DNA of 64,000 bases from an uncultured Bacteroidales bacterium (GCA_905233275.1 CAJODR010000005.1:149-64148), one strand, 5' to 3'. Counted from the stretch's first letter, positions 14,425-64,000 are shown. Notes: a model not told the origin generated them from the sequence alone. Made by a program: numbers and translations.

Positions 14425-15983
14425 AAGGGCAGGTTGTCGTGCTTCTTTGCGGGGATGTCCTGTTTCTTGAGGGCGAGCTGCTCGAGGGCGCGGATGACGC
14501 GGAACCTGGTGTTGCGAGGCTCGATGACATCGTCGATATAGCCCTTCTGGGCAGCCTGGTAAGGGTTGGAGAAGAGATCGTCGTATTCTTTCTTCTTCTC
14601 TTCGAATATCTTTTTCTTCTCGTCCGGATCCTCGGTGGCCTTGAGATCCTTGGCGTAGAGGATGTTGACTGCGCCGTCGGCACCCATGACCGCGATGTTG
14701 GCGGAGGGCCAGGCGTAGTTGAGGTCGCCGCGGAGCTGTTTGCAGCTCATGACGATGTGGGCGCCGCCGTAGGACTTGCGCAGGGACACGGTGACTTTGG
14801 GGACCGTGGCCTCGCCGTAAGCGTAAAGGAGCTTGGCACCGTTGGTGATGATGGCGCCGTATTCCTGCTGCGTGCCGCAGAGGAAACCGGGCACGTCGAC
14901 GAGCGTTACGAGCGGAATGTTGAAAGCGTCGCAGAAGCGGACAAAGCGCGAGGCCTTTCTCGAAGCGTTGATGTCGAGGACGCCAGCGAGCACCTTGGGC
15001 TGGTTGGCAACGATACCGACGCTGCGGCCTGCCATGTGGGCGAATCCTACTATTATATTCTTTGCGAACTGCTCGTGGATCTCGAAGAAATCGCCGTCAT
15101 CGACGATGCTGCGGATCACGTAGTACATGTCGTAAGCCTTGTTGGGATTGTCCGGAATAATGTCGTTGAGGGCATCGTCAACGCGGCTGTAGGGATCGGA
15201 GGTCTCCCGGCGGGGAGCCTCTTCCATATTGTTCTGGGGAATGTAGCTGAGGAGCTTCTTGATGGTGGCAAGGCCTTCCTGCTCGTTTTCAGCTGCGAAG
15301 TGTGCCACGCCGCTCTTGCTGGCATGGACGGATGCACCGCCCAGGTCCTCCTGGCTGACAACCTCGCCGGTCACTGATTTGACGACTGCGGGGCCTGTCA
15401 GGAACATGTAGCTTGTATTCTTCACCATGAGGGTGAAGTCGGTCAGGGCAGGGGAGTAGACTGCTCCACCGGCGCAGGGACCGAATATGCCGCTGATCTG
15501 CGGGACGACACCCGACGCGAGGATATTCCTCTCGAATATCTCGCCGAATCCGGCGAGCGAATCGATACCTTCCTGGATACGGGCTCCGCCGCTGTCGTTG
15601 AGACCGATGACGGGTGCTCCGGCGCGGACGGCCATGTCCATGATCTTGCAGATCTTTTCCGACATGGTCTTCGACAGGGAACCTCCGTTGACCGTGAAAT
15701 CCTGGGCGAATACATACACGAGGCGGCCGTCGATGGTGCCGCATCCGGTCACGACGCCGTCGCCGTCGGTATGGGATTTATCCATTCCGAAATTGGCGCA
15801 GCGGTGGTGAACGAACATGTCGTATTCTTCAAAGCTGCCTTCGTCGAGAAGGATAGCAAGGCGCTCCCTTGCGGTGAGCTTGCCCTTCTCATGCTGGGCG
15901 TCGATGCGTGCCTGCCCGCCGCCGAGACGGGCCTTGGCCCTCCGCTCGACGAGTTTGGATATGTTTTCCTGCTGGATACTCAT
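14421..15983 (-). CDS. mmdA: Methylmalonyl-CoA decarboxylase alpha / acyl-CoA carboxyltransferase
   Basis: [25 protein letters not shown] and KKHDNLPL motifs. Confidence 0.93.
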
Positions 15984-54677: not shown

Positions 54678-56162
54678 ATGAAATCGGACATCATTATTGC
54701 CGGCGGGGGTGCTGCCGGCCTTATGGCTGCGGTGGGTGCAGCGCAATCTTTGGCTGAATCTGGAAACGGGGGGACGGTAACTGTCCTCGAAAAGATGCAG
54801 AAACCCGGACGCAAGATCATGATTACCGGCAAGGGCCGTTGCAACTTCACCAATGTCAAGGAATGGGACGATTTCTCCTCTCACGTGAGGACAGATCCCC
54901 GTTTTGTCAGTCCGGCATTTCACAATCTCACCCCTGAAGATCTCATCGCCTTTTTCAAGGAATACGGCATGCGCAGCATCGTCGAGAGAGGGGAGAGGGC
55001 CTTCCCGGCCTCGCACCTTTCCGGCGACGTGGTTGACACACTCGTCAGGGCATGCACGCTGCTGGGCGTCAAAATCGTGACCGGATGCGAAATCCGCTCC
55101 GTGGAGACCTCCAGGCAGGGATTCAAGCTGGATTGCACACTCACTACTATCAAAGAATTCCGTCAGCGGACGGACAATCCACGCCAGCGTCCCGTCTCAA
55201 AGACGGAGACTACCGTGGAGCCTGTCAGCTACACCTGCAGCCGTCTCATCGTCGCGACTGGCGGCCTGTCCTATCCCGGCACAGGATCGACCGGTGACGG
55301 CTACAAGTGGGCGGAGGCATTCGGCCATGGTATTGAGCCTGTGTTCCCTTCACTTACTGCCCTGGTTCCGCAAGGCTACAAGTCCGCTGAGAGCCCGCTG
55401 GCCGGCGAAATCCGCGATGCTTTCCGCGGACGTCCCGCTAAGAAAGAGCACAAGATCAATCCTCTGCCGGCAGATTATCCCAAACTGCCTGGCCACATAG
55501 AGAGGATTACCCCTCTTACCGAAATCGGCCGCATGTTTGAATCCAACAAATTAGACAATATAGCAGTCACGCTTTATGTGGACGGCCGTGAAGTCCAGAG
55601 GGAATTCGGCGACCTCGAATTCACTGACGGCGGCATCGAAGGACCTGTCGGGTACATGGTCAGCCGCAAGGCCGTCAAGGCCATCATTGCCGGCAGCAAA
55701 GTGAGTATCTCCATCGACCTCAAACCGGCCGTTGAGGCCGAACAGCTCGACGCCGACGTGCACGAGCGCTGGGAGGCCGTCAAGGCTGACCCCAGGAGCC
55801 GCGGGGCCGCATTCCAGAAGCTGTTCCGTATACTTCTCGGCAAGCTCATCCCCTGGGACCTCGTCGCCCCTTTCCTGAGGATGAATCCCGACGTCAGCAT
55901 CAACTCTCTCGCCGCCGTCCTCAAGGACTGGAGCTTCCCCATCGAAGGCTTCGTGGGCTTCGAAAGGGCGGTCGTCACCGCAGGCGGTATATCCACCGAT
56001 GACGTCGTCGCCAAGACGCTTGAGTCAAAGAAGGTCCCCGGCCTCTACTTCGCCGGAGAAGTACTTGATATAGACAGCGATACGGGCGGCTACAACCTCG
56101 AAACCTCATTCGCCACCGGCTATCTTGCCGGACAGTCCGCAGCCAAGTCACTGGAGCAATGA
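54678..56162 (+). CDS. HI0933/YhiN-family flavoprotein
   Basis: GGGAAGLMAA, ITGKGRCNFTN, TGSTGDGY, VTAGG and DTGGYNL motifs. Confidence 0.93.
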   Translation: MKSDIIIAGGGAAGLMAAVGAAQSLAESGNGGTVTVLEKMQKPGRKIMITGKGRCNFTNVKEWDDFSSHVRTDPRFVSPAFHNLTPEDLIAFFKEYGMRSIVERGERAFPASHLSGDVVDTLVRACTLLGVKIVTGCEIRSVETSRQGFKLDCTLTTIKEFRQRTDNPRQRPVSKTETTVEPVSYTCSRLIVATGGLSYPGTGSTGDGYKWAEAFGHGIEPVFPSLTALVPQGYKSAESPLAGEIRDAFRGRPAKKEHKINPLPADYPKLPGHIERITPLTEIGRMFESNKLDNIAVTLYVDGREVQREFGDLEFTDGGIEGPVGYMVSRKAVKAIIAGSKVSISIDLKPAVEAEQLDADVHERWEAVKADPRSRGAAFQKLFRILLGKLIPWDLVAPFLRMNPDVSINSLAAVLKDWSFPIEGFVGFERAVVTAGGISTDDVVAKTLESKKVPGLYFAGEVLDIDSDTGGYNLETSFATGYLAGQSAAKSLEQ

Positions 56163-57433
56163 AAGAAGCAGAGGGTACATTCGCCGCTTTCCTCGAAGGG
56201 CACAGCCGCAAGGAAGTGATCGACTTCGCTCGCGTTGTCGGGCTGGATCTTGGTGTCTCCGTGACCAAGTCCGCCGCCATCAAGCGCTACACCGATTATA
56301 TTCTGAGCCGTCCCGGCGAATGGATGAGCGCCCTCACCGAATGGGACCTCAAAATCCTGAGAACACTTGCTGCACAGGCACCCGGCGAGCACATGGCAGG
56401 AGAGTACGCCGGCTACATCGCCCCTGTTACGATAGTCGGCATTGTCCAGACCAAACCCGGCCCTGACGACGATACATTCGAATACTGGCTTCCCGAAGAA
56501 CTTTTCTTCACGGTCAAGGACAATATCGACGCGGCCATCCGCGACGGCGAATCTTCCGGGCGCTTCACTGTCGAACGCCTCGCCCTCGGACTGCTCAATC
56601 TATATGGCTTCATGCCCATGGAAAAACTTCTCGACATGGTCATGGAATACCTCAAGGAACACCCCACCCAGGATATCAGGGCCTACTATGACTTCTTCGT
56701 CGGCAGCGCCGCAATCTCCCTTTTCAGGGAATACAGCCTCAAATCCCGGAGCGAGGTAGTAGTCTGCCCCGAACTCTTCGAGATTGACACCGTAGAGAGC
56801 GGCCGCGACCTCTATTCCGACATCCGGAAGGCAAAGCACTTCTCCTACGAGGAAGTCCTGGAGGCCGGCACCGGCGCGCCGGATTTCACATTCCGCCTCG
56901 ACACCCCTGAAGGCAGGCGCTACTGCGAAGTCTTGCTCTCCAAGGGTTATTATCCCGAATCCATCCCCATGCTCGCCCACGACCTTTGGATGGGCGTCCA
57001 GATTGAGGGACGGACCCTGATGGACACGATTTACGGCCCCGTCGCCGACCAGATGGACATGTTCCTGAGCGAAGAAGAATACCACGCCGCGCTCGAAGCC
57101 GTGGCCGACTACGTCAATATCCTGCCCCGCTGGCAGCTCAAGGGCTGGTCCCCGTCGGAGAAGAACTACATGAAACTCGTGTTCGACCCCGCCGACGCCC
57201 CTCCTTTCATTCCGCCTGACGGCGAATACGATTCCTGGGAAATGCCCCGTCCAAGCATCTCTGAGGGCTATACAGACCTTATAGAGAAGGATGAAAAGAT
57301 AGGACAGCTAATTGGCCTCATGCCGGAAGGTTTCCCCTTCGGAATGGCCATCCCCCACGTCTCCAAGGACGACCCGTGCCCCTGCGGCAGCGGACTCAAG
57401 TACGGCAGCTGTCACGGAAAAATGTTGAATTAA
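56159..57433 (+). CDS. SEC-C motif protein
   Basis: C-terminal DDPCPCGSGLKYGSCHG; ATGA overlap with the upstream gene. Confidence 0.85.
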   Translation: MKEAEGTFAAFLEGHSRKEVIDFARVVGLDLGVSVTKSAAIKRYTDYILSRPGEWMSALTEWDLKILRTLAAQAPGEHMAGEYAGYIAPVTIVGIVQTKPGPDDDTFEYWLPEELFFTVKDNIDAAIRDGESSGRFTVERLALGLLNLYGFMPMEKLLDMVMEYLKEHPTQDIRAYYDFFVGSAAISLFREYSLKSRSEVVVCPELFEIDTVESGRDLYSDIRKAKHFSYEEVLEAGTGAPDFTFRLDTPEGRRYCEVLLSKGYYPESIPMLAHDLWMGVQIEGRTLMDTIYGPVADQMDMFLSEEEYHAALEAVADYVNILPRWQLKGWSPSEKNYMKLVFDPADAPPFIPPDGEYDSWEMPRPSISEGYTDLIEKDEKIGQLIGLMPEGFPFGMAIPHVSKDDPCPCGSGLKYGSCHGKMLN

Positions 57434-57483
57434 TTTCACGGCCCGGTGCAAGATTCTGATTGTACCGGGATTTAAGTATCAGT

Positions 57484-58239
57484 ATGAAAGCAAGAATTCT
57501 AATTATCCTCCTGTCATTAGTCTCCATCCTGGCCTCGTGCTCGATGGGGGAACTGGTTGCCGAACCGGAAGACAACTCAAACAACACGGAGAATACGGAG
57601 AATGGAGATAATAATGGCAATAATGGAGAGAAAGGAGAACCTGTCGCTGACGCTGACGTTGGTGTCAACATGGGAGAACAGGTCAATGACGCTATTGTGA
57701 CGGCAAAAAAAGACTCACAGGGTGCCTGGTACCTGTATGTCACGCCAACCTATTCTGTCTATCCGATCAATACGGATATGATTACCTTCTCCGGCGAGAC
57801 CAGGGCGACTGCACAGTTTGTTGTGACTGATGTGCGTGAAGGACGCACGTACGTGAAACTCGTCGCCGTAGACGCAATTGAGACCAAGGCTCTGAATCTT
57901 ACTGATGATCCTTCATTCGGTGGTGATCGGCTCGATGTCGTTGACGACTGGAGGACCATGGTCGAGGATGGCTATCTCTCGGTACGTTTCAGTACATACT
58001 GGGGCAAGAACGCCAAATATCACGATCTAAGGCTCTTCCGCCTCGCGGGAGATGATCCGTACGCAGTCATTATCCGGCAGGATTCAGGCGGAGATGCGGT
58101 TAATTACAAGGGCGATGCCCTGGTAGCATTCACCCTTGACGGGCTGCCTTCGACGGGAGGGGAGAGCGTGACGCTGACGCTGTATTACGATTCCCTTGAC
58201 GGGGGTAGAAAAACAAAAGAATTCGCCTTTAAGAACTAG
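57484..58239 (+). CDS. NigD-like lipoprotein
   Basis: Lipobox LASC, N/E-rich linker, DDWRTMVEDGYLSVRF and LRQDSGGD-like C-domain; sits before ECF/anti-sigma genes. Confidence 0.7.
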   Translation: MKARILIILLSLVSILASCSMGELVAEPEDNSNNTENTENGDNNGNNGEKGEPVADADVGVNMGEQVNDAIVTAKKDSQGAWYLYVTPTYSVYPINTDMITFSGETRATAQFVVTDVREGRTYVKLVAVDAIETKALNLTDDPSFGGDRLDVVDDWRTMVEDGYLSVRFSTYWGKNAKYHDLRLFRLAGDDPYAVIIRQDSGGDAVNYKGDALVAFTLDGLPSTGGESVTLTLYYDSLDGGRKTKEFAFKN

Positions 58240-58242
58240 TAT

Positions 58243-58803
58243 TTGAAAGGCTTTCAGGACATACGCGAGCAGGAGCTCATCGAAAGGGCGAGAGGCGGTG
58301 ACAGGGGAGCGATGGAATCGATCTATCGCTCTTATTCCGGCTATCTCAACGCCGTCTGCTCCCGATATGTCACTGACGGAGACGAGGCACGGGACGTGCT
58401 GCAGGAGAGTTTCATCAGGATATTCTCCTCGCTGGACAAGTTCGAATACAGGGGAGAAGGCTCGCTGAAGGGCTGGATGTCAAAGATTGTCGTCAACCGT
58501 TCGCTGAAGCTGTTGAGAAGCCATAAACGCTCGCTGACGCTTGCCGGAGCGGATATTCCCGATGTGGAGGATGACAGCAATCCCGGATTCGACGGAGTCC
58601 CTGAAAAGGTGATAATGGATATGATACGGAGTCTCCCGGAAGGATACAGGACGGTTTTCAACCTCCATGTGCTGGAGGATCTGCCGCACAAGGAAATCGG
58701 GCGGCTTCTCGGCATCAAGGAGAATTCTTCGGCCTCACAGTACCTCAGGGCAAGGGCCATTCTCGCAAAACAGATAACTGAATACAAGAAGACACACTGT
58801 TAA
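58243..58803 (+). CDS. ECF sigma-70 factor (TTG start)
   Basis: DVLQESFIRIF, LKGWMSKIVVN and LPEGYRTVFNL...HKEIG motifs. Confidence 0.93.
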   Translation: MKGFQDIREQELIERARGGDRGAMESIYRSYSGYLNAVCSRYVTDGDEARDVLQESFIRIFSSLDKFEYRGEGSLKGWMSKIVVNRSLKLLRSHKRSLTLAGADIPDVEDDSNPGFDGVPEKVIMDMIRSLPEGYRTVFNLHVLEDLPHKEIGRLLGIKENSSASQYLRARAILAKQITEYKKTHC

Positions 58804-58806
58804 TAT

Positions 58807-60048
58807 ATGGATTGGAAAAAACAACTGAGAGAGAGGATGTCCTCCTACAGCGAGCCCGCCGGGGACGGGCTCTGGGAGAGCATCGCGTCCGGCTTGGACG
58901 GAGCGGTAAAGCGCCGTCCGGCGGCCTGGATATGGCCTCTCGCAGGAGCCGCGGCGGCCGTAGTCGCAGCGCTCCTTCTGATACCCCGTGAGACAGCAGT
59001 CGAGCCTGAAAAAACGCTCGTCGCCGATGCTTCAACCATAGATGAAAGTCACGAGACAGAAATACCTGTAAACCAGGTTGATACTCCTTTTGAGGAAATT
59101 CTCGTGGCCGAGGCTCTCCCCGCTACTCCGCCAGTGTCTTCTTCTGTCGCTTCAGTGTTCTCTCCAATCCAAAAAGCGACCGCTGAAATCCCCGTTCAGA
59201 TCGCTCTTGTCGAGCGCCCTTCATTAGGCCGATTGGCCTCCCTTACAGAGCTCCCGTCACATCGCCTTGCTACCGGGGCCGGCACCATTCGCCGACAGGC
59301 GGAAAAAGTGGGTGAGGATGATTTTCCGGTATTCCCTGACGATTGGGACGATGTGACCGGTTTCAGGCCTTCTTTCTCATTGGGACTCAATGGATTGATG
59401 GGTTTATCTGCATCATCGCGTGAAGATGGTTTCGGCACCTCTTCCCAGTCCATGAGGACTGTCCGGAAGTCAGCTGCCCTCAACGCCGAATATGCCGATC
59501 TCGCCCTTCGCAACCGTCCTACGACCGACGAGGAGAATCACTCTCTGGCAGCCCGTTTCGGAGTCGAATTCGATCTCCGTTTTGCTCCCTCGTGGTCGGT
59601 CGGCACCGGTTTGTTCTACAGTTCGCCCCAGTCGCGCTTCCGGAGCGGCTCGGCTACCAACTATGTGATTACCAGGCAGACGCTTGGCTATGTCGGCATT
59701 CCTCTGCATGTCAAATACGACTTCCTGACCGCAGGCGGATTCCGCTTCTACGCCAAGGCCGGCGGGGCGGGGGAGACCTGCGTATACAATTCGTCCGGGA
59801 GGACGTACTATTCCGGCGACAAGGCATACGACGGCGAGAATCTCTCCGGCAATACAAAAACGCCCATACAGTGGTCCCTGGGGGCTGCGGCCGGCGCCGA
59901 ATTGACATTCTTAAAGCACTTTTCCATCTACGCCGAACCCTCATTCAACTGGTACATTCCATCGGGCTCGGAACTTAAATCAGTCTATACCGAAAAGCCC
60001 TTCAGCCCCGGCCTTTCCGCCGGTATACGCTTTACGCTGGACAGGTAA
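58807..60048 (+). CDS. Anti-sigma factor with TM, low-complexity tether and C-terminal outer-membrane beta-barrel
   Basis: LRERMSSYSEPAGDGLWESI N-domain, Ala-rich TM, P/S/T/E linker, alternating beta-strands ending GIRF. Confidence 0.8.
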   Translation: MDWKKQLRERMSSYSEPAGDGLWESIASGLDGAVKRRPAAWIWPLAGAAAAVVAALLLIPRETAVEPEKTLVADASTIDESHETEIPVNQVDTPFEEILVAEALPATPPVSSSVASVFSPIQKATAEIPVQIALVERPSLGRLASLTELPSHRLATGAGTIRRQAEKVGEDDFPVFPDDWDDVTGFRPSFSLGLNGLMGLSASSREDGFGTSSQSMRTVRKSAALNAEYADLALRNRPTTDEENHSLAARFGVEFDLRFAPSWSVGTGLFYSSPQSRFRSGSATNYVITRQTLGYVGIPLHVKYDFLTAGGFRFYAKAGGAGETCVYNSSGRTYYSGDKAYDGENLSGNTKTPIQWSLGAAAGAELTFLKHFSIYAEPSFNWYIPSGSELKSVYTEKPFSPGLSAGIRFTLDR

Positions 60049-60128
60049 AAAGGAGTTTTTTGGGCTTATCGTTTGCAAACAAGGCAAAAAAACTCTATCT
60101 TTATATGCTTGATTGCATATAAAAGACT

Positions 60129-61109
60129 ATGAGTTTGACCAAAGCCCTTAAACGTATATTCGTCGGTGCTCCTTCCGATGAGGAGCCGCGCATACCAGAC
60201 GGCTCTCCGGAGCCTATGACACGCCAGGAATTCGAAGACCAGATAGTGGATCATTTCCGCTACCGCCTCCGCAAGGAGACGACAAAGGGTTCGCTCGTTT
60301 ATCCTACCAATTTCTATATTTATCTCACCCCCACGGACTATGAGGAGCAAAAGGAGGCATTCCCCTTCACCGTCCTCGACGTTGTCAACGAATTCAACGC
60401 AATCATAGGCGACAAGCGCAAAGAGTATCCCTCGTTCACTCCGATTGCCAAGTACTGGCAGTTCCAATTCCTCCGTTTCGAGGAGGGGACAATGATAGAA
60501 AACATGCGCGAGACTGTCTCCGGTATGGAAGACGGCAGCGTACTTGTGATGTCCTACATATTCACCAAGGAAAATCTTGACGTGGTGGCCCAGGAGAATG
60601 TCAGGGTAGTCACCACAAAGCGCAACAAAGGTACCGTCAAGACCCACCAGCTCTCGATCAACACCGATGCCCTCAGAGGCCTCAGGATGGAATCTGAAAC
60701 GCTCTACAAGGTCCCCGCCGGCAATTTCTCCAAAGTCGGGATCGATTCCGTCTCCAAAGACGGCCCCAAGCCGATCGCGAGGCTGAAGATAGCGCCATAT
60801 TCGGATTCGGTATGCTTCCTCACCGGAGGCCAGAATGCCGAAGTATGCAATATGCTGATGGACACCCTCCAGGTCTGCGGCAAAAACGGAGTGGAAACCA
60901 CTGGATTCCAGACTCTAAAGGTCTCTTCCGATGCCGTGCTCAATCCGCATTTCCGCATTGAGAAGACACCGCAGGGTTTCCGCATCACGGCCCTCGGCTC
61001 CCTCGTCCTCAACGAAGTTCCGATGGAAAAGGGCGAATCCGCGCCCCTCCCTTCCAACAGCGCCATTCTCCTCAACAACATGATCCAGATCACCTTCAAG
61101 ACAGTCTGA
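60129..61109 (+). CDS. FhaA-like protein (DUF3662-like N-domain plus degenerate FHA-like C-domain)
   Basis: YPTNFYIYLTPTDYEE N-terminal pattern; C-terminal HFRI...LGS...LNE...L...I beta pattern; upstream of a PP2C. Confidence 0.6.
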   Translation: MSLTKALKRIFVGAPSDEEPRIPDGSPEPMTRQEFEDQIVDHFRYRLRKETTKGSLVYPTNFYIYLTPTDYEEQKEAFPFTVLDVVNEFNAIIGDKRKEYPSFTPIAKYWQFQFLRFEEGTMIENMRETVSGMEDGSVLVMSYIFTKENLDVVAQENVRVVTTKRNKGTVKTHQLSINTDALRGLRMESETLYKVPAGNFSKVGIDSVSKDGPKPIARLKIAPYSDSVCFLTGGQNAEVCNMLMDTLQVCGKNGVETTGFQTLKVSSDAVLNPHFRIEKTPQGFRITALGSLVLNEVPMEKGESAPLPSNSAILLNNMIQITFKTV

Positions 61110-61113
61110 CACG

Positions 61114-61194
61114 ATGAAATACCTCCTTCTCCTTGCCATCGCAGGACTCGTAGTCTACCTGGCTTTCGACCATTTCACTAATTATCCGCGCTGA
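61114..61194 (+). CDS. 26-aa single-TM peptide MKYLLLLAIAGLVVYLAFDHFTNYPR
   Basis: Manual translation; fills the gap between the FHA-like and PP2C genes; TGATG overlap with the PP2C start. Confidence 0.6.
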   Translation: MKYLLLLAIAGLVVYLAFDHFTNYPR

Positions 61195-62219
61195 TGAAAA
61201 GCATAGCATATTCGGCCCTCACCGACGTCGGGAGGGTCAGGACCAATAACGAAGACAACTACCTGGTCCGGTATCTTCCGGGCGAGAGGTTCCTCCTCAG
61301 CGTGGTGATTGACGGTGTAGGAGGATATGAGGGTGGGGAAGTGGCCGCCTCGATGGCCGCCGAATCTATCTCCGCCTCCATGGAAAGGGCCGCCCTCCAG
61401 GAGCCGCTCCAAGATCTCAAAGAGGCCGTCACCAAGGCCAGCAACGATATCTACGAGGCCCGTCTCGCAGACGCCCGCCTTTCCGAGATGAGCTGCGTCG
61501 TCACAGCCGCCCTCATCGACCTGGACAAGGAGCTCCTCTATCTGGTACATATAGGCGACACGCGCCTGTACCAATTCGCCGGAGGCATGCTCACCAAGCT
61601 CTCACATGACCATTCGCTCGTCGGATACTGGGAGGAGAGCGGCACTATTTCCGAGGCGGAGGCAATGGTACATCCGCGCCGCAATATCATCGACAGGAGC
61701 CTCGGAGACGTCAGGCACCTCAGCAGCGACCAGGACTTCCTGGACGCGGGAATATTCCCCATCGAGCCCGGTTCGTCATTCCTGTTCTGCTCCGACGGTC
61801 TCTACGACATGCTGACATCGGCCGAGATCACGTCCGTGCTTGCAGACAGCCATACCCTTGATGAGAAGGCTCAGCTACTTGTCGCCATGGCGAATGAAAA
61901 AGGCGGCAAGGACAACGTCACCGTCATCATTCTTCAAACATCTGCAGAGCCGGCTCCGAAGCCCCGCCAGGCCTCAAAAGTAGCCCCAGTAGCCCCAGCG
62001 CCGGAAACTCCCAAGCGTTCGAAAGGCGGCAAGGTGGCCTTGATTGCGGTGCTCTTCTTCGCCCTCGGCTATGCGGCCGGGTTCATTACCCCGGGGATTG
62101 TCAAGCGGCTTGAAAAAGTCCACACTCCGAAAACCGCTCCGGTGGACACCACTTCTGTTATTAAGGATACTTCCCTGGTGCAGAAGGACTCTCTCGATAT
62201 CAAGGAGCCGCAGCAATGA
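61194..62219 (+). CDS. Membrane-anchored PP2C Ser/Thr phosphatase
   Basis: TDVGRVRTNNED, IDGVGG, HIGDTR, DHSLV, LFCSDGL and GGKDNVT motifs, then a Pro/Ala linker and TM. Confidence 0.93.
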   Translation: MKSIAYSALTDVGRVRTNNEDNYLVRYLPGERFLLSVVIDGVGGYEGGEVAASMAAESISASMERAALQEPLQDLKEAVTKASNDIYEARLADARLSEMSCVVTAALIDLDKELLYLVHIGDTRLYQFAGGMLTKLSHDHSLVGYWEESGTISEAEAMVHPRRNIIDRSLGDVRHLSSDQDFLDAGIFPIEPGSSFLFCSDGLYDMLTSAEITSVLADSHTLDEKAQLLVAMANEKGGKDNVTVIILQTSAEPAPKPRQASKVAPVAPAPETPKRSKGGKVALIAVLFFALGYAAGFITPGIVKRLEKVHTPKTAPVDTTSVIKDTSLVQKDSLDIKEPQQ

Positions 62220-64000
62220 TCAAGATCAAAGACTTCTTCGGCCTGTGCCTCGTGACCGGCGTGATGATCATCGCCTATCTCACCCTGTCGGCCAACCAGA
62301 GCAAATACCTCGACGGGGTGGAAGCCGCCCTTGAGAGCGGCGAAGCCATGGTGCTAGACGCATCGACCGACTCTGTTGCCCTCGCCGAGTTCTTCGTCCG
62401 CAAAGGCTACTATTCCGGTAGGGACGCCGAATTCATTGCCGGTAGCATCGCCCGTCCGCTCAACAAGGGCATCGTCCCCCAGAACCTCGGCGAGCTCAAC
62501 AAGCGCTCGTTCAGGGTGGAAGCCGAGGACGCTTATTCCCGTGGGGGCGAAATCATGCGTTCCCTGGTCGAACGCTCAAGAGGCGACCTGGGCTGGTCGG
62601 ACAAGATTGAGAGTATTTATAATAGTGAATCGATACCTGATTCGCTCAACGCCGTATCGGGTGATACCAAACTGAAGGTGCAGGTGAAGGCGGAGGACGA
62701 TTCGCCGGTTGAAGGCGTTCTTGTGCGGCTCACAGAGCATTATGTGGTCGAGGATTCTGCGCGGGATTCGCTCCTGGCCGTCTGTTTCACTGACAAAAGC
62801 GGCAGGGCTGAATTCGCGGTCTCGCAGGGACGATTCTACAGCGTACTTCCCATCAGGCGCGGATTTGAGTATGGCGCCTCCAAGGGTACGAGAGGCGGTG
62901 CACGTGTCTCATCTTCCCCTTATGTCTTCCGGCAGAAAGTGCATACCCTGGCACCTCTGTCCTCAGATACCTTTTCGAGCATAAAGGCGGATACCACCCT
63001 GATGGTTCGCACGCCGCAGCAGTACAGGGATTCCCGCTTCCTGATATTCCTCGTATTTCTCGGAGTGTGGTGGCTTCTCATTATCACCCTCTCCGTGCTT
63101 GACCGCAACAGGAAGGCAAAATCTGATTCGCTGTCCCTTATCCTTCTGATGACTCTGTCGGGGGTGTGCCTCCTCGCCATGTTCTCGATACCCAACCCGC
63201 TCAACGACATGCCCCGTGCGAGGGAAATGATAGAGGCTATAGTCGTTGGCGTTATCGCCATCGGAGTGCTGTCTAGACTCGATTTCATCAGCTTTTACAA
63301 CGGCCGGTTGCGCATTTTCGGATTGAATATAAAATTCGACTTTGTCGGACAGATTCTGAAACCGCTTCTTCCGAAGAAGGTCAAATGGCCGGACGGACTC
63401 GGGTATCTCATCATAGCAGCTGTTTTCATCGCTCTGCTTACGCTGTTCGGCCAGGGACCGGAAGGCAGCGATGCTAAGGTCAACCTTTCAATCGGCGGAT
63501 TTGCCTTCCAGCCCAGCGAACTCAACAAATTCCTCGTCGTGCTGTTCATGGCGGCATTTTTCGCCAGGAATGCTGCGAAGATCCAGTCCTTTTCCGAGAA
63601 GCTGGACAAGATGCGCTTCCGCTTCCAGCTGCGCACGGTCGCTTTCATATTCGTCGCGATAGCGGCTATCCTCAGCCTTTACCTCGTGCTGCTCAGCGAC
63701 ATGGGGCCGGCGCTGGTACTCATGGTGACGTTTATCCTTATTTATTCAGTGGCGAGAAGGGATTTCCCTCAGCTGCTCCTCGGAGTCGCGACATTCGCCC
63801 TGATGCTTGTCCTTCCTTCCTGGCTGGGAATGAGCGATAAGGTGCGCATAGTCCTGGTCATCCTGTGGTTTGTGCTATGGGTGGCCGGTGGATGGGCGGC
63901 AAAAAAACGTCTATACGAAAGCGCAATATTCATGAATCTGGTCCTGACCCTTTTCATCCTCGGTCCAACCATACTGTCAAGCCTCGGTTTCAGTGAGGCG
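62216..64000 (+). CDS. SEDS (FtsW/RodA/SpoVE) protein with large N-terminal extracytoplasmic domain, runs off the window end
   Basis: Manual translation is open from ATG 62216; SEDS motifs GSDAKVNLSIGGFAFQPSELNK and SDMGPAL follow about 250 aa of soluble domain. Confidence 0.88.
   Translation, partial: MIKIKDFFGLCLVTGVMIIAYLTLSANQSKYLDGVEAALESGEAMVLDASTDSVALAEFFVRKGYYSGRDAEFIAGSIARPLNKGIVPQNLGELNKRSFRVEAEDAYSRGGEIMRSLVERSRGDLGWSDKIESIYNSESIPDSLNAVSGDTKLKVQVKAEDDSPVEGVLVRLTEHYVVEDSARDSLLAVCFTDKSGRAEFAVSQGRFYSVLPIRRGFEYGASKGTRGGARVSSSPYVFRQKVHTLAPLSSDTFSSIKADTTLMVRTPQQYRDSRFLIFLVFLGVWWLLIITLSVLDRNRKAKSDSLSLILLMTLSGVCLLAMFSIPNPLNDMPRAREMIEAIVVGVIAIGVLSRLDFISFYNGRLRIFGLNIKFDFVGQILKPLLPKKVKWPDGLGYLIIAAVFIALLTLFGQGPEGSDAKVNLSIGGFAFQPSELNKFLVVLFMAAFFARNAAKIQSFSEKLDKMRFRFQLRTVAFIFVAIAAILSLYLVLLSDMGPALVLMVTFILIYSVARRDFPQLLLGVATFALMLVLPSWLGMSDKVRIVLVILWFVLWVAGGWAAKKRLYESAIFMNLVLTLFILGPTILSSLGFSEA

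Follow-up and report, generated by a model that had tools for sequence, protein, structure and literature searches.

A kinase-, phosphatase-, and FHA-linked SEDS-transpeptidase fusion operon of Bacteroidota as a probable accessory peptidoglycan synthase

The end of a 64,000-nucleotide (nt) stretch of DNA from an uncultured Bacteroidales bacterium (GCA_905233275.1, CAJODR010000005.1:149-64148; the whole stretch is called the window here) carries an operon that probably specifies a self-contained accessory peptidoglycan synthase with its own Ser/Thr phospho-signaling circuit. From position 60129 to 64000, the window holds the 5' two-thirds of this operon, which consists of six genes encoding an FhaA-like protein of 326 amino acids (aa) (ORF326), a micropeptide, a membrane PP2C phosphatase, a fusion of a SEDS domain with a class B penicillin-binding protein (bPBP), a Hanks-type kinase, and a second FHA protein of 268 aa (FHA268). 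In the monoderm Actinobacteria and Firmicutes, SEDS-bPBP synthases are known to be controlled by Hanks kinases, PP2C phosphatases, and FHA readers; the host here is a diderm. The family scores of the synthase and the neighboring genes are consistent with an accessory status, separate from the mre and dcw clusters. An earlier note, made from the window's sequence, had recognized the coupled genes and had predicted that a class B PBP and a Hanks kinase would lie just past the window. Both are present there, but the PBP is not a separate gene and is instead fused to the SEDS protein.

The operon and its fusion synthase

Four tightly coupled open reading frames (ORFs) lie on the + strand from 60129 to 64000, and their coordinates bear out the TGATG and ATGA overlaps that had been noted between them:

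60129-61109, + strand: ORF326, 326 aa, FhaA-like, predicted to be a two-domain cytoplasmic protein
61114-61194, + strand: micropeptide ORF, 26 aa, MKYLLLLAIAGLVVYLAFDHFTNYPR, starting 4 nt past the ORF326 stop
61194-62219, + strand: PP2C ORF, 341 aa, its ATG overlapping the micropeptide TGA (TGATG)
62216 to beyond 64000, + strand: synthase ORF, 595 aa in the window, its ATG overlapping the PP2C stop (ATGA)
62216..63040, + strand: N-terminal extension of the synthase, residues 1-275
63041..64000, + strand: start of the SEDS domain; the window stops at synthase residue 595
60072..60103, + strand: possible Bacteroidetes-type promoter (TTTG, 20 nt, TATCTTTA), some 26 nt ahead of the ORF326 start codon, to be taken as a lead only

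The Bacteroidetes promoter consensus is TTTG at -33 and TAnnTTTG at -7.

The remainder of the operon was read from public metagenome contigs, five of which encode the PP2C protein. One of them (L001) differs from the window by 3 mismatches over 12.8 kb, and two others (L002 and L003) are strain variants in which the synthase is identical at 1381/1381 residues. The full synthase gene spans 11023-15168 on L001 and L002. The genes that continue past the end of the window encode, in order, the 1381-aa synthase, a 420-aa Hanks kinase, and FHA268, followed by thrA and asd.

The synthase, a single inner-membrane protein, carries in one ORF a match to Pfam FTSW_RODA_SPOVE (PF01098; 5.3e-39), which upholds its assignment to the RodA/FtsW family, and a match to Pfam Transpeptidase (PF00905; 2.6e-19). 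On the ORF as it stands in the window, the SEDS match starts only at residue 344. In the full protein, Pfam reports two SEDS stretches, residues 344-551 matching profile positions 14-206 and residues 523-751 matching 140-353; these tile the profile and thus represent a single SEDS domain. In an alignment of 14 homologues with 38-85% identity, the SEDS motifs FQPSExxK (Q432-K438) and PxxHTD (T650-D651) are invariant, as are the transpeptidase motifs SxxK (S1090/K1093), SxN (S1141/N1143), and KTG (K1316-G1318). D651 aligns with D255 of Thermus thermophilus RodA (6bar_A), which we take to be the essential Asp of that enzyme. Between the SEDS and transpeptidase domains, an extra transmembrane (TM) helix at residues 768-786 matches the anchor of a bPBP, and a spacer of about 240 aa, of pedestal length and containing a YDRNG motif, precedes the transpeptidase. 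Residues 1-275 run from TM1 through a helical region and a CarboxypepD_reg-like beta-sandwich to the stretch leading into TM2. A separate alignment shows that this N-terminal extension is conserved across four orders, with an invariant N90-L-G92..N95, and Pfam CarboxypepD_reg matches 7 of 20 synthase members (best, 8.9e-8). SEDS proteins usually have their N-terminus in the cytoplasm, which would place this module in the periplasm.

The fusion could in principle be the core elongasome or divisome synthase of these bacteria (RodA-PBP2 or FtsW-FtsI) in a fused form rather than an accessory enzyme. Its SEDS and transpeptidase catalytic residues are intact, and the 64-kb window contains no other SEDS protein, both of which would suit a core enzyme. 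However, the synthase scores far below every NCBIfam equivalog cut-off (ftsW, 134 against 337.5 bits; rodA, 98 against 336.7; spoVE, 98 against 448.8; pbp2, 68 against 455), and its SEDS matches in the PDB are strong only over the C-terminal third. The gene also lies outside any dcw or mre context: the operon's neighbors are an ECF sigma factor gene, thrA, and asd, and there are no mur or mre genes among them. The low scores and the absence of mur and mre neighbors speak against a core FtsW or RodA orthologue. Furthermore, the fusion was found in at least 582 species-level genomes, which does not indicate universality, and Pedobacter ginsengisoli, whose genome encodes a similar chimera, retains both FtsW/FtsI and RodA/MrdA (PMC12516126). 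We therefore regard a core role as quite improbable.

A second alternative is a synthase specific to differentiation, comparable to SpoVE/SpoVD, that would build the wall of resting, stress-resistant, or altered-shape cells, with the kinase circuit acting as a developmental switch. The SpoVE and SpoVD models match the fusion as well as those of RodA and PBP2 do, up to three tandem kinases are found at some loci, and the same parallel has been drawn before (PMC12516126). Among solved structures, the transpeptidase part matches Mycobacterium tuberculosis PbpA (3lo7, 3un7) weakly, and SpoVD (7rcz) is also among its matches, the latter in favor of this alternative. The best solved-structure match is 4mnr_A (E = 1.1e-6; a chain of 457 residues), deposited as "Peptidoglycan glycosyltransferase", which possibly represents the transpeptidase part of a comparable fusion in a Coriobacteriia species. 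Against a differentiation-specific role, no sporulation-specific gene is present at the locus, and carriers of the fusion range across lifestyles from rumen to soil. We also know of no gut Bacteroidales family among the carriers that differentiates. On balance, a differentiation-specific synthase seems unlikely, and an accessory synthase remains the reading that we prefer.

Signaling proteins and the micropeptide

The 341-aa product of the third gene matches Pfam PP2C_2 (1.6e-15) and NCBIfam Stp1/IreP (3.8e-59; 200 bits, under the cut-off of 230), and its translation contains the metal-binding motifs RTNNED, DGVGG, GDTR, SDG, and DN. Its predicted layout is a catalytic domain at residues 1-250, a Pro-rich linker, a TM helix at 281-299, and a 42-aa extracytoplasmic tail. 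By these sequence criteria, it is a membrane-anchored PP2C with a PstP-like architecture, in agreement with the earlier note. Two short contigs from bovine gut metatranscriptomes map to the PP2C gene and provide weak evidence that it is transcribed; the window sequence itself is present in bovine gut metagenomes. At other loci, PP2C, SEDS, and transpeptidase form single proteins of 1638-1796 aa with the PP2C at the N-terminus (L033:7062-11978, 1638 aa; P0009, 1796 aa; P0010; and P0037). Such triple fusions argue for a direct physical coupling of regulator and enzyme.

The kinase (420 aa; Pkinase, 3.8e-36) retains the HxD, DFG, and APE motifs, has a C-terminal coiled coil and a Thr-rich tail, and lacks a TM helix. 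Its full sequence was read from L002 and L003, since on L001 a run of N (a scaffold gap, about 15228-15263) falls inside the gene and leaves it without a Pfam entry. No PASTA domain was found on any of the 11 kinases checked, namely, the operon kinase and ten from other loci. The tails of the ten further kinases vary and include coiled coils and, in one case (L023:4217-6205), a TPM domain. Three Hanks kinases lie in tandem past the synthase in L007 (12429-18180), L063 (13068-18636), and L075 (13364-18794).

FHA268, the product of the last gene, retains the canonical GR, SxxH, and N residues of an FHA domain. Its own sequence matches the domain at E = 0.003, and 45 of 52 members of its family match PF00498. 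The N-terminal domain has no Pfam match, and its comparison with FhaA_N by hhalign was unconvincing (probability 9%).

ORF326 called for more work, as the sequence itself has no Pfam or NCBIfam match. The label "FhaA-like" thus needed profile and fold comparisons, which support it: AlphaFold 2 (AF2), Foldseek, and hhalign recovered a C-terminal FHA fold, which lacks the canonical phosphate-binding Ser, and the N-terminal domain remotely resembles FhaA_N. An exhaustive HMMER search returned a family of 191 representatives, nearly all 310-350 aa long. A word-indexed homologue search gave only 4 near-identical matches, and a genome scan with ORF326 peptides gave none. An AF2 model built from a 92-sequence alignment reached a pLDDT of 84.6 overall and above 94 over residues 241-326, whereas a model from the single sequence was uninformative (pLDDT 36). 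The protein consists of an N-terminal domain (about residues 30-145), a linker predicted to be disordered, and a C-terminal domain (about 217-326). The top 50 PDB matches of the model in Foldseek were all FHA domains (probability 1.00), including those of GarA/OdhI, Chk2, and M. tuberculosis FhaA (3oun_A, TMt 0.75; 2lc1). BLASTP of ORF326 against FHA268 gave no match, and hhalign of the ORF326 family against the canonical FHA268 family gave a probability of 78% (E = 1.8e-5). On the strength of the model and these profiles, the C-terminal domain is a divergent FHA fold. Among the 92 family members, its signature consists of G251 (88/92), K/R252 (50/92), H274 (77/92), and N295 (78/92).

The N-terminal domain of ORF326 resembles FhaA_N only remotely, as far as profiles can tell. 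Pfam FhaA_N (DUF3662, PF12401) matches 2 of the 92 members (best E = 5.9e-6). Comparison by hhalign of the ORF326 family with an alignment of mycobacterial FhaA_N, the latter seeded with a sequence checked to be identical to 2lc0_A, paired residues 28-102 with 29-103, in register, at E = 8.6e-4 and a probability of only 24%. When a hidden Markov model (HMM) of this mycobacterial alignment was run against the family, about 18 members matched at E < 0.1, almost all in register (best E = 0.002), and the best value in a reversed-sequence control was 0.29. The family profile found no FhaA among PDB sequences at E values up to 10. AF2 predicts a helix-strand-helix-strand-strand order for the domain. 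The linker contains a conserved motif at residues 159-169 (window positions about 60603-60635), N-V-V-x-[TS]-[VI]-[KHR]-x-K-[ND]-[ST], in which position 163 is Ser or Thr in 87/92 members and position 169 in 88/92. These two positions are candidate target sites of the kinase or candidate docking sites for an FHA domain.

The predicted single-pass membrane peptide encoded between ORF326 and PP2C was missed by automatic gene callers on the public contigs. Comparison of its codons with those of a relative at 85% identity (L166) revealed 13 synonymous and 0 nonsynonymous differences, and in a relative at 67% identity (L167), residues of the TM segment have changed while DHFTNYPR is kept. Of 68 loci examined in other genera, 47 have an ORF of 23-33 aa with a single TM segment in the gap between ORF326 and PP2C. 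The peptide's tail reads HF(K/Q/T)(N/D)(L/Y)P(R/K) in Bacteroidales, Cytophagales, and Niastella and HFxDIKx(T/S)HKxNG in Chitinophagaceae and Sphingobacteriaceae, and a conserved HFxN(L/Y)P(R/K) tail was found in about 45 genomes. A scan of the loci for the motif gave one match elsewhere, which is weak, lies on the opposite strand in L041, and was taken as chance. Judging from its codon substitutions and conserved tail, the micropeptide ORF is a real gene under purifying selection, as its inclusion in the earlier note had implied. Some small membrane proteins are known to bind SEDS or divisome synthases, such as SidA and DidA of Caulobacter and Blr of Escherichia coli. Like them, the micropeptide is a single-pass peptide of about 30 aa associated, by gene position or by action, with a SEDS-bPBP synthase. 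In contrast to them, it is unrelated in sequence and is a constitutive member of an operon rather than a stress-induced inhibitor.

Conservation and comparison with known systems

The composition and order of the loci were surveyed in the best 80 of the at least 582 genomes with the fusion, which come from four orders of Bacteroidota. The SEDS-transpeptidase fusion is kept in 80/80 loci, and all five families (ORF326, PP2C, fusion, kinase, and FHA) are present in 58 of them, always on the strand of the fusion; a complete locus has one to three kinases. Most loci that are short of members seem to be truncated where a contig stops, given where the match falls relative to the contig size. The order of the genes is permuted among loci, with ORF326 always directly upstream of PP2C. 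Carriers in the Bacteroidales belong to the Prevotellaceae, Muribaculaceae, Porphyromonadaceae, Dysgonomonadaceae, Rikenellaceae, Paludibacteraceae, and Bacteroidaceae, and the others belong to the Cytophagales (Spirosoma and Larkinella), Chitinophagales (Niastella, Segetibacter, and Ferruginibacter), and Sphingobacteriales (Mucilaginibacter). No Flavobacteriales were found among these 80. The recurrence of the same gene set on one strand in 58/80 genomes from four orders places the arrangement beyond chance.

This linkage bears on the possibility that an unrelated signaling or anti-phage cassette, made up of the kinase, PP2C, and FHA genes, merely adjoins a SEDS gene. The kinase does match the PADLOC kinase models PD-T4-6 and mad6 at 1e-37 to 1e-39. 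However, PADLOC gave only generic kinase and PP2C matches, and ORF326, the fusion, and FHA268 had none. Moreover, the genes stay linked across four orders despite their permuted order, and PP2C-synthase fusions exist. A role in defense is thus effectively ruled out, and we give the idea of a chance neighbor hardly any credence.

The closest parallel to the operon is the actinobacterial fhaA-fhaB-pstP-rodA-pbpA-pknA-pknB cluster, which its gene order had been said to mirror. The parts are indeed alike: an FHA protein whose N-terminal domain remotely resembles FhaA_N stands directly upstream of a membrane PP2C, followed by SEDS, bPBP, and a Hanks kinase, and there are two FHA proteins, all on one strand and tightly coupled. 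The likeness does not extend to a separate pbpA, a second kinase, or the position of fhaB, which is taken here by a 26-aa TM peptide without an FHA domain. Whereas rodA and pbpA are separate genes in Actinobacteria, their counterparts here form a single polypeptide with an additional, predicted periplasmic module of about 275 aa and two extra TM helices. The single kinase is soluble and lacks PASTA repeats, unlike PknB, which has a TM helix and extracellular PASTA repeats, and the canonical FHA protein is found at the 3' end of the operon. ORF326 in turn differs from FhaA in that its linker is short rather than long and of low complexity, the canonical Ser is missing from its FHA domain, and its likeness to FhaA_N is remote (E of about 1e-3, profile to profile).

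In full-text literature searches, we found no experimental study of the module, and a kinase atlas preprint does not mention it. The only prior mention found is a bioinformatic account of one Pedobacter protein, published in 2025 within a catalogue of 117 glycosyltransferase-transpeptidase (GTase-TPase) chimeras (Microlife; PMC12516126). The earlier note's remark that no characterization was known thus holds for experimental work, but the fusion had been noticed once. The P. ginsengisoli chimera of 1341 aa was described as having "two GTase domains in tandem", no pedestal, and a flanking kinase and phosphatase, and its authors urge that it be studied in the future (PMC12516126). It shares with the synthase described here the phylum, a similar size, a GTase and a TPase in one protein, the lack of a Pfam pedestal, and kinase and phosphatase neighbors. 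Unlike the "two GTase domains" of that account, the Pfam stretches form one SEDS domain in the present protein. The Pedobacter chimera very probably belongs to the same family, because homologues of 1356-1360 aa from Mucilaginibacter (Sphingobacteriaceae) are among the matches. That account does not mention the ORF326 family or the micropeptide, nor does it cover the FHA pair, the N-terminal module, fusions with PP2C, or the linkage across the phylum. The same catalogue includes SEDS-PbpA fusions from Coriobacteriia/Actinomycetota, e.g., a 931-aa protein of Senegalimassilia faecalis (PMC12516126). In these, too, the SEDS-transpeptidase is flanked by Ser/Thr kinases and phosphatases, but they are about 450 aa shorter, contain a recognizable PBPA_dimer domain, and have no periplasmic extension at the N-terminus.

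Beyond the operon, the window has a GC content of 55.8%. The top-ranking Asd matches come from Candidatus Cryptobacteroides (75%) and uncultured Bacteroidales (73-74%), which supports a Bacteroidales origin. Immediately upstream of the operon lie three genes. The first encodes a NigD_C lipoprotein (57460-58239), the second an ECF sigma factor (58243-58803), and the third (58807-60048) a 413-aa protein that combines an anti-sigma-like N-terminus with a TM helix and, at its C-terminus, an outer membrane protein beta-barrel domain. In the 85% relative L166 and the 67% relative L167, these three genes are likewise syntenic with the operon; in L167, a reverse-strand FMN_bind gene lies between them and ORF326. 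Farther upstream, a 424-aa protein whose sole match is a C-terminal SEC-C motif (56159-57433) is kept in the relatives, as is an HI0933-like flavoprotein (54678-56162) whose gene overlaps that of the SEC-C protein by 4 nt.

Proposed function of the operon

We propose that the operon works by the same logic as the FhaA/PstP/RodA/PbpA/PknB system of Actinobacteria, but in a diderm setting. The kinase would phosphorylate Thr or Ser residues in the cytoplasm, candidates being [ST]163 and [ST]169 of ORF326 and the Thr-rich tail of the kinase itself. FHA268, and possibly ORF326, would read these marks and scaffold, position, or gate the synthase, and the PP2C, which would sit in the same membrane as the synthase, would reset the switch. 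The micropeptide may serve as a small subunit in the membrane, either modulating the synthase or anchoring the PP2C. Such a circuit would make peptidoglycan conditionally, be it for repair, remodeling, or a switch between growth states, alongside the core Rod and divisome machines.

Several observations weigh against this model. The position of the canonical phosphate-binding Ser (271) is occupied by L, M, I, or A in the ORF326 family, and with this Ser replaced and K/R252 present in about half of the members, binding of phospho-Thr by ORF326 may be wholly absent. No Pfam pedestal domain was found between the anchor TM helix and the transpeptidase. The micropeptide is absent from about a third of the loci, where the gap between ORF326 and PP2C is at most 18 nt, so it is not indispensable to the module. 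Among the operon genes, RNA contigs were found for PP2C only. Finally, neither the operon kinase nor the ten others have a recognizable sensor domain. The lack of such domains would suit a different arrangement, in which the periplasmic PBP and beta-sandwich serve mainly as BlaR- or PASTA-like sensors of beta-lactams or peptidoglycan fragments, and the kinase, FHA proteins, and PP2C relay the signal to targets outside the operon. The conserved extra periplasmic module of the fusion and the occasional joining of PP2C to the synthase would also fit such a sensor. However, all catalytic residues of the SEDS and transpeptidase domains are invariant, which suggests selection for catalysis, and the module includes no conserved DNA-binding or effector output gene. 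A pure sensor thus appears very unlikely, and a working synthase under phospho-control is the interpretation that we retain.

A bolder version of this interpretation, which we put forward tentatively and at somewhat less than an even chance, is that the operon represents a third self-contained peptidoglycan synthase of Bacteroidota, with Thr phosphorylation as its switch instead of FtsN/FtsQLB or MreC/RodZ. In such a machine, the 26- to 33-aa peptide would define a new kind of subunit dedicated to a SEDS-bPBP synthase (or to PP2C), and the beta-sandwich module would monitor the condition of the wall or the outer membrane. If correct, this would be the first control of wall synthesis by a eukaryote-like kinase to be described in a diderm phylum.

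A complete, diverged version of the kinase/PP2C/FHA-SEDS-bPBP system is kept in at least four orders of a diderm phylum whose members include bacteria dominant in the gut and rumen, and one of the conserved parts of this system is a micropeptide that gene callers have overlooked. For biochemical and structural studies, the natural SEDS-bPBP fusion provides a synthase in a single chain. We speculate that an extra transpeptidase could also affect beta-lactam tolerance in gut Bacteroidales.

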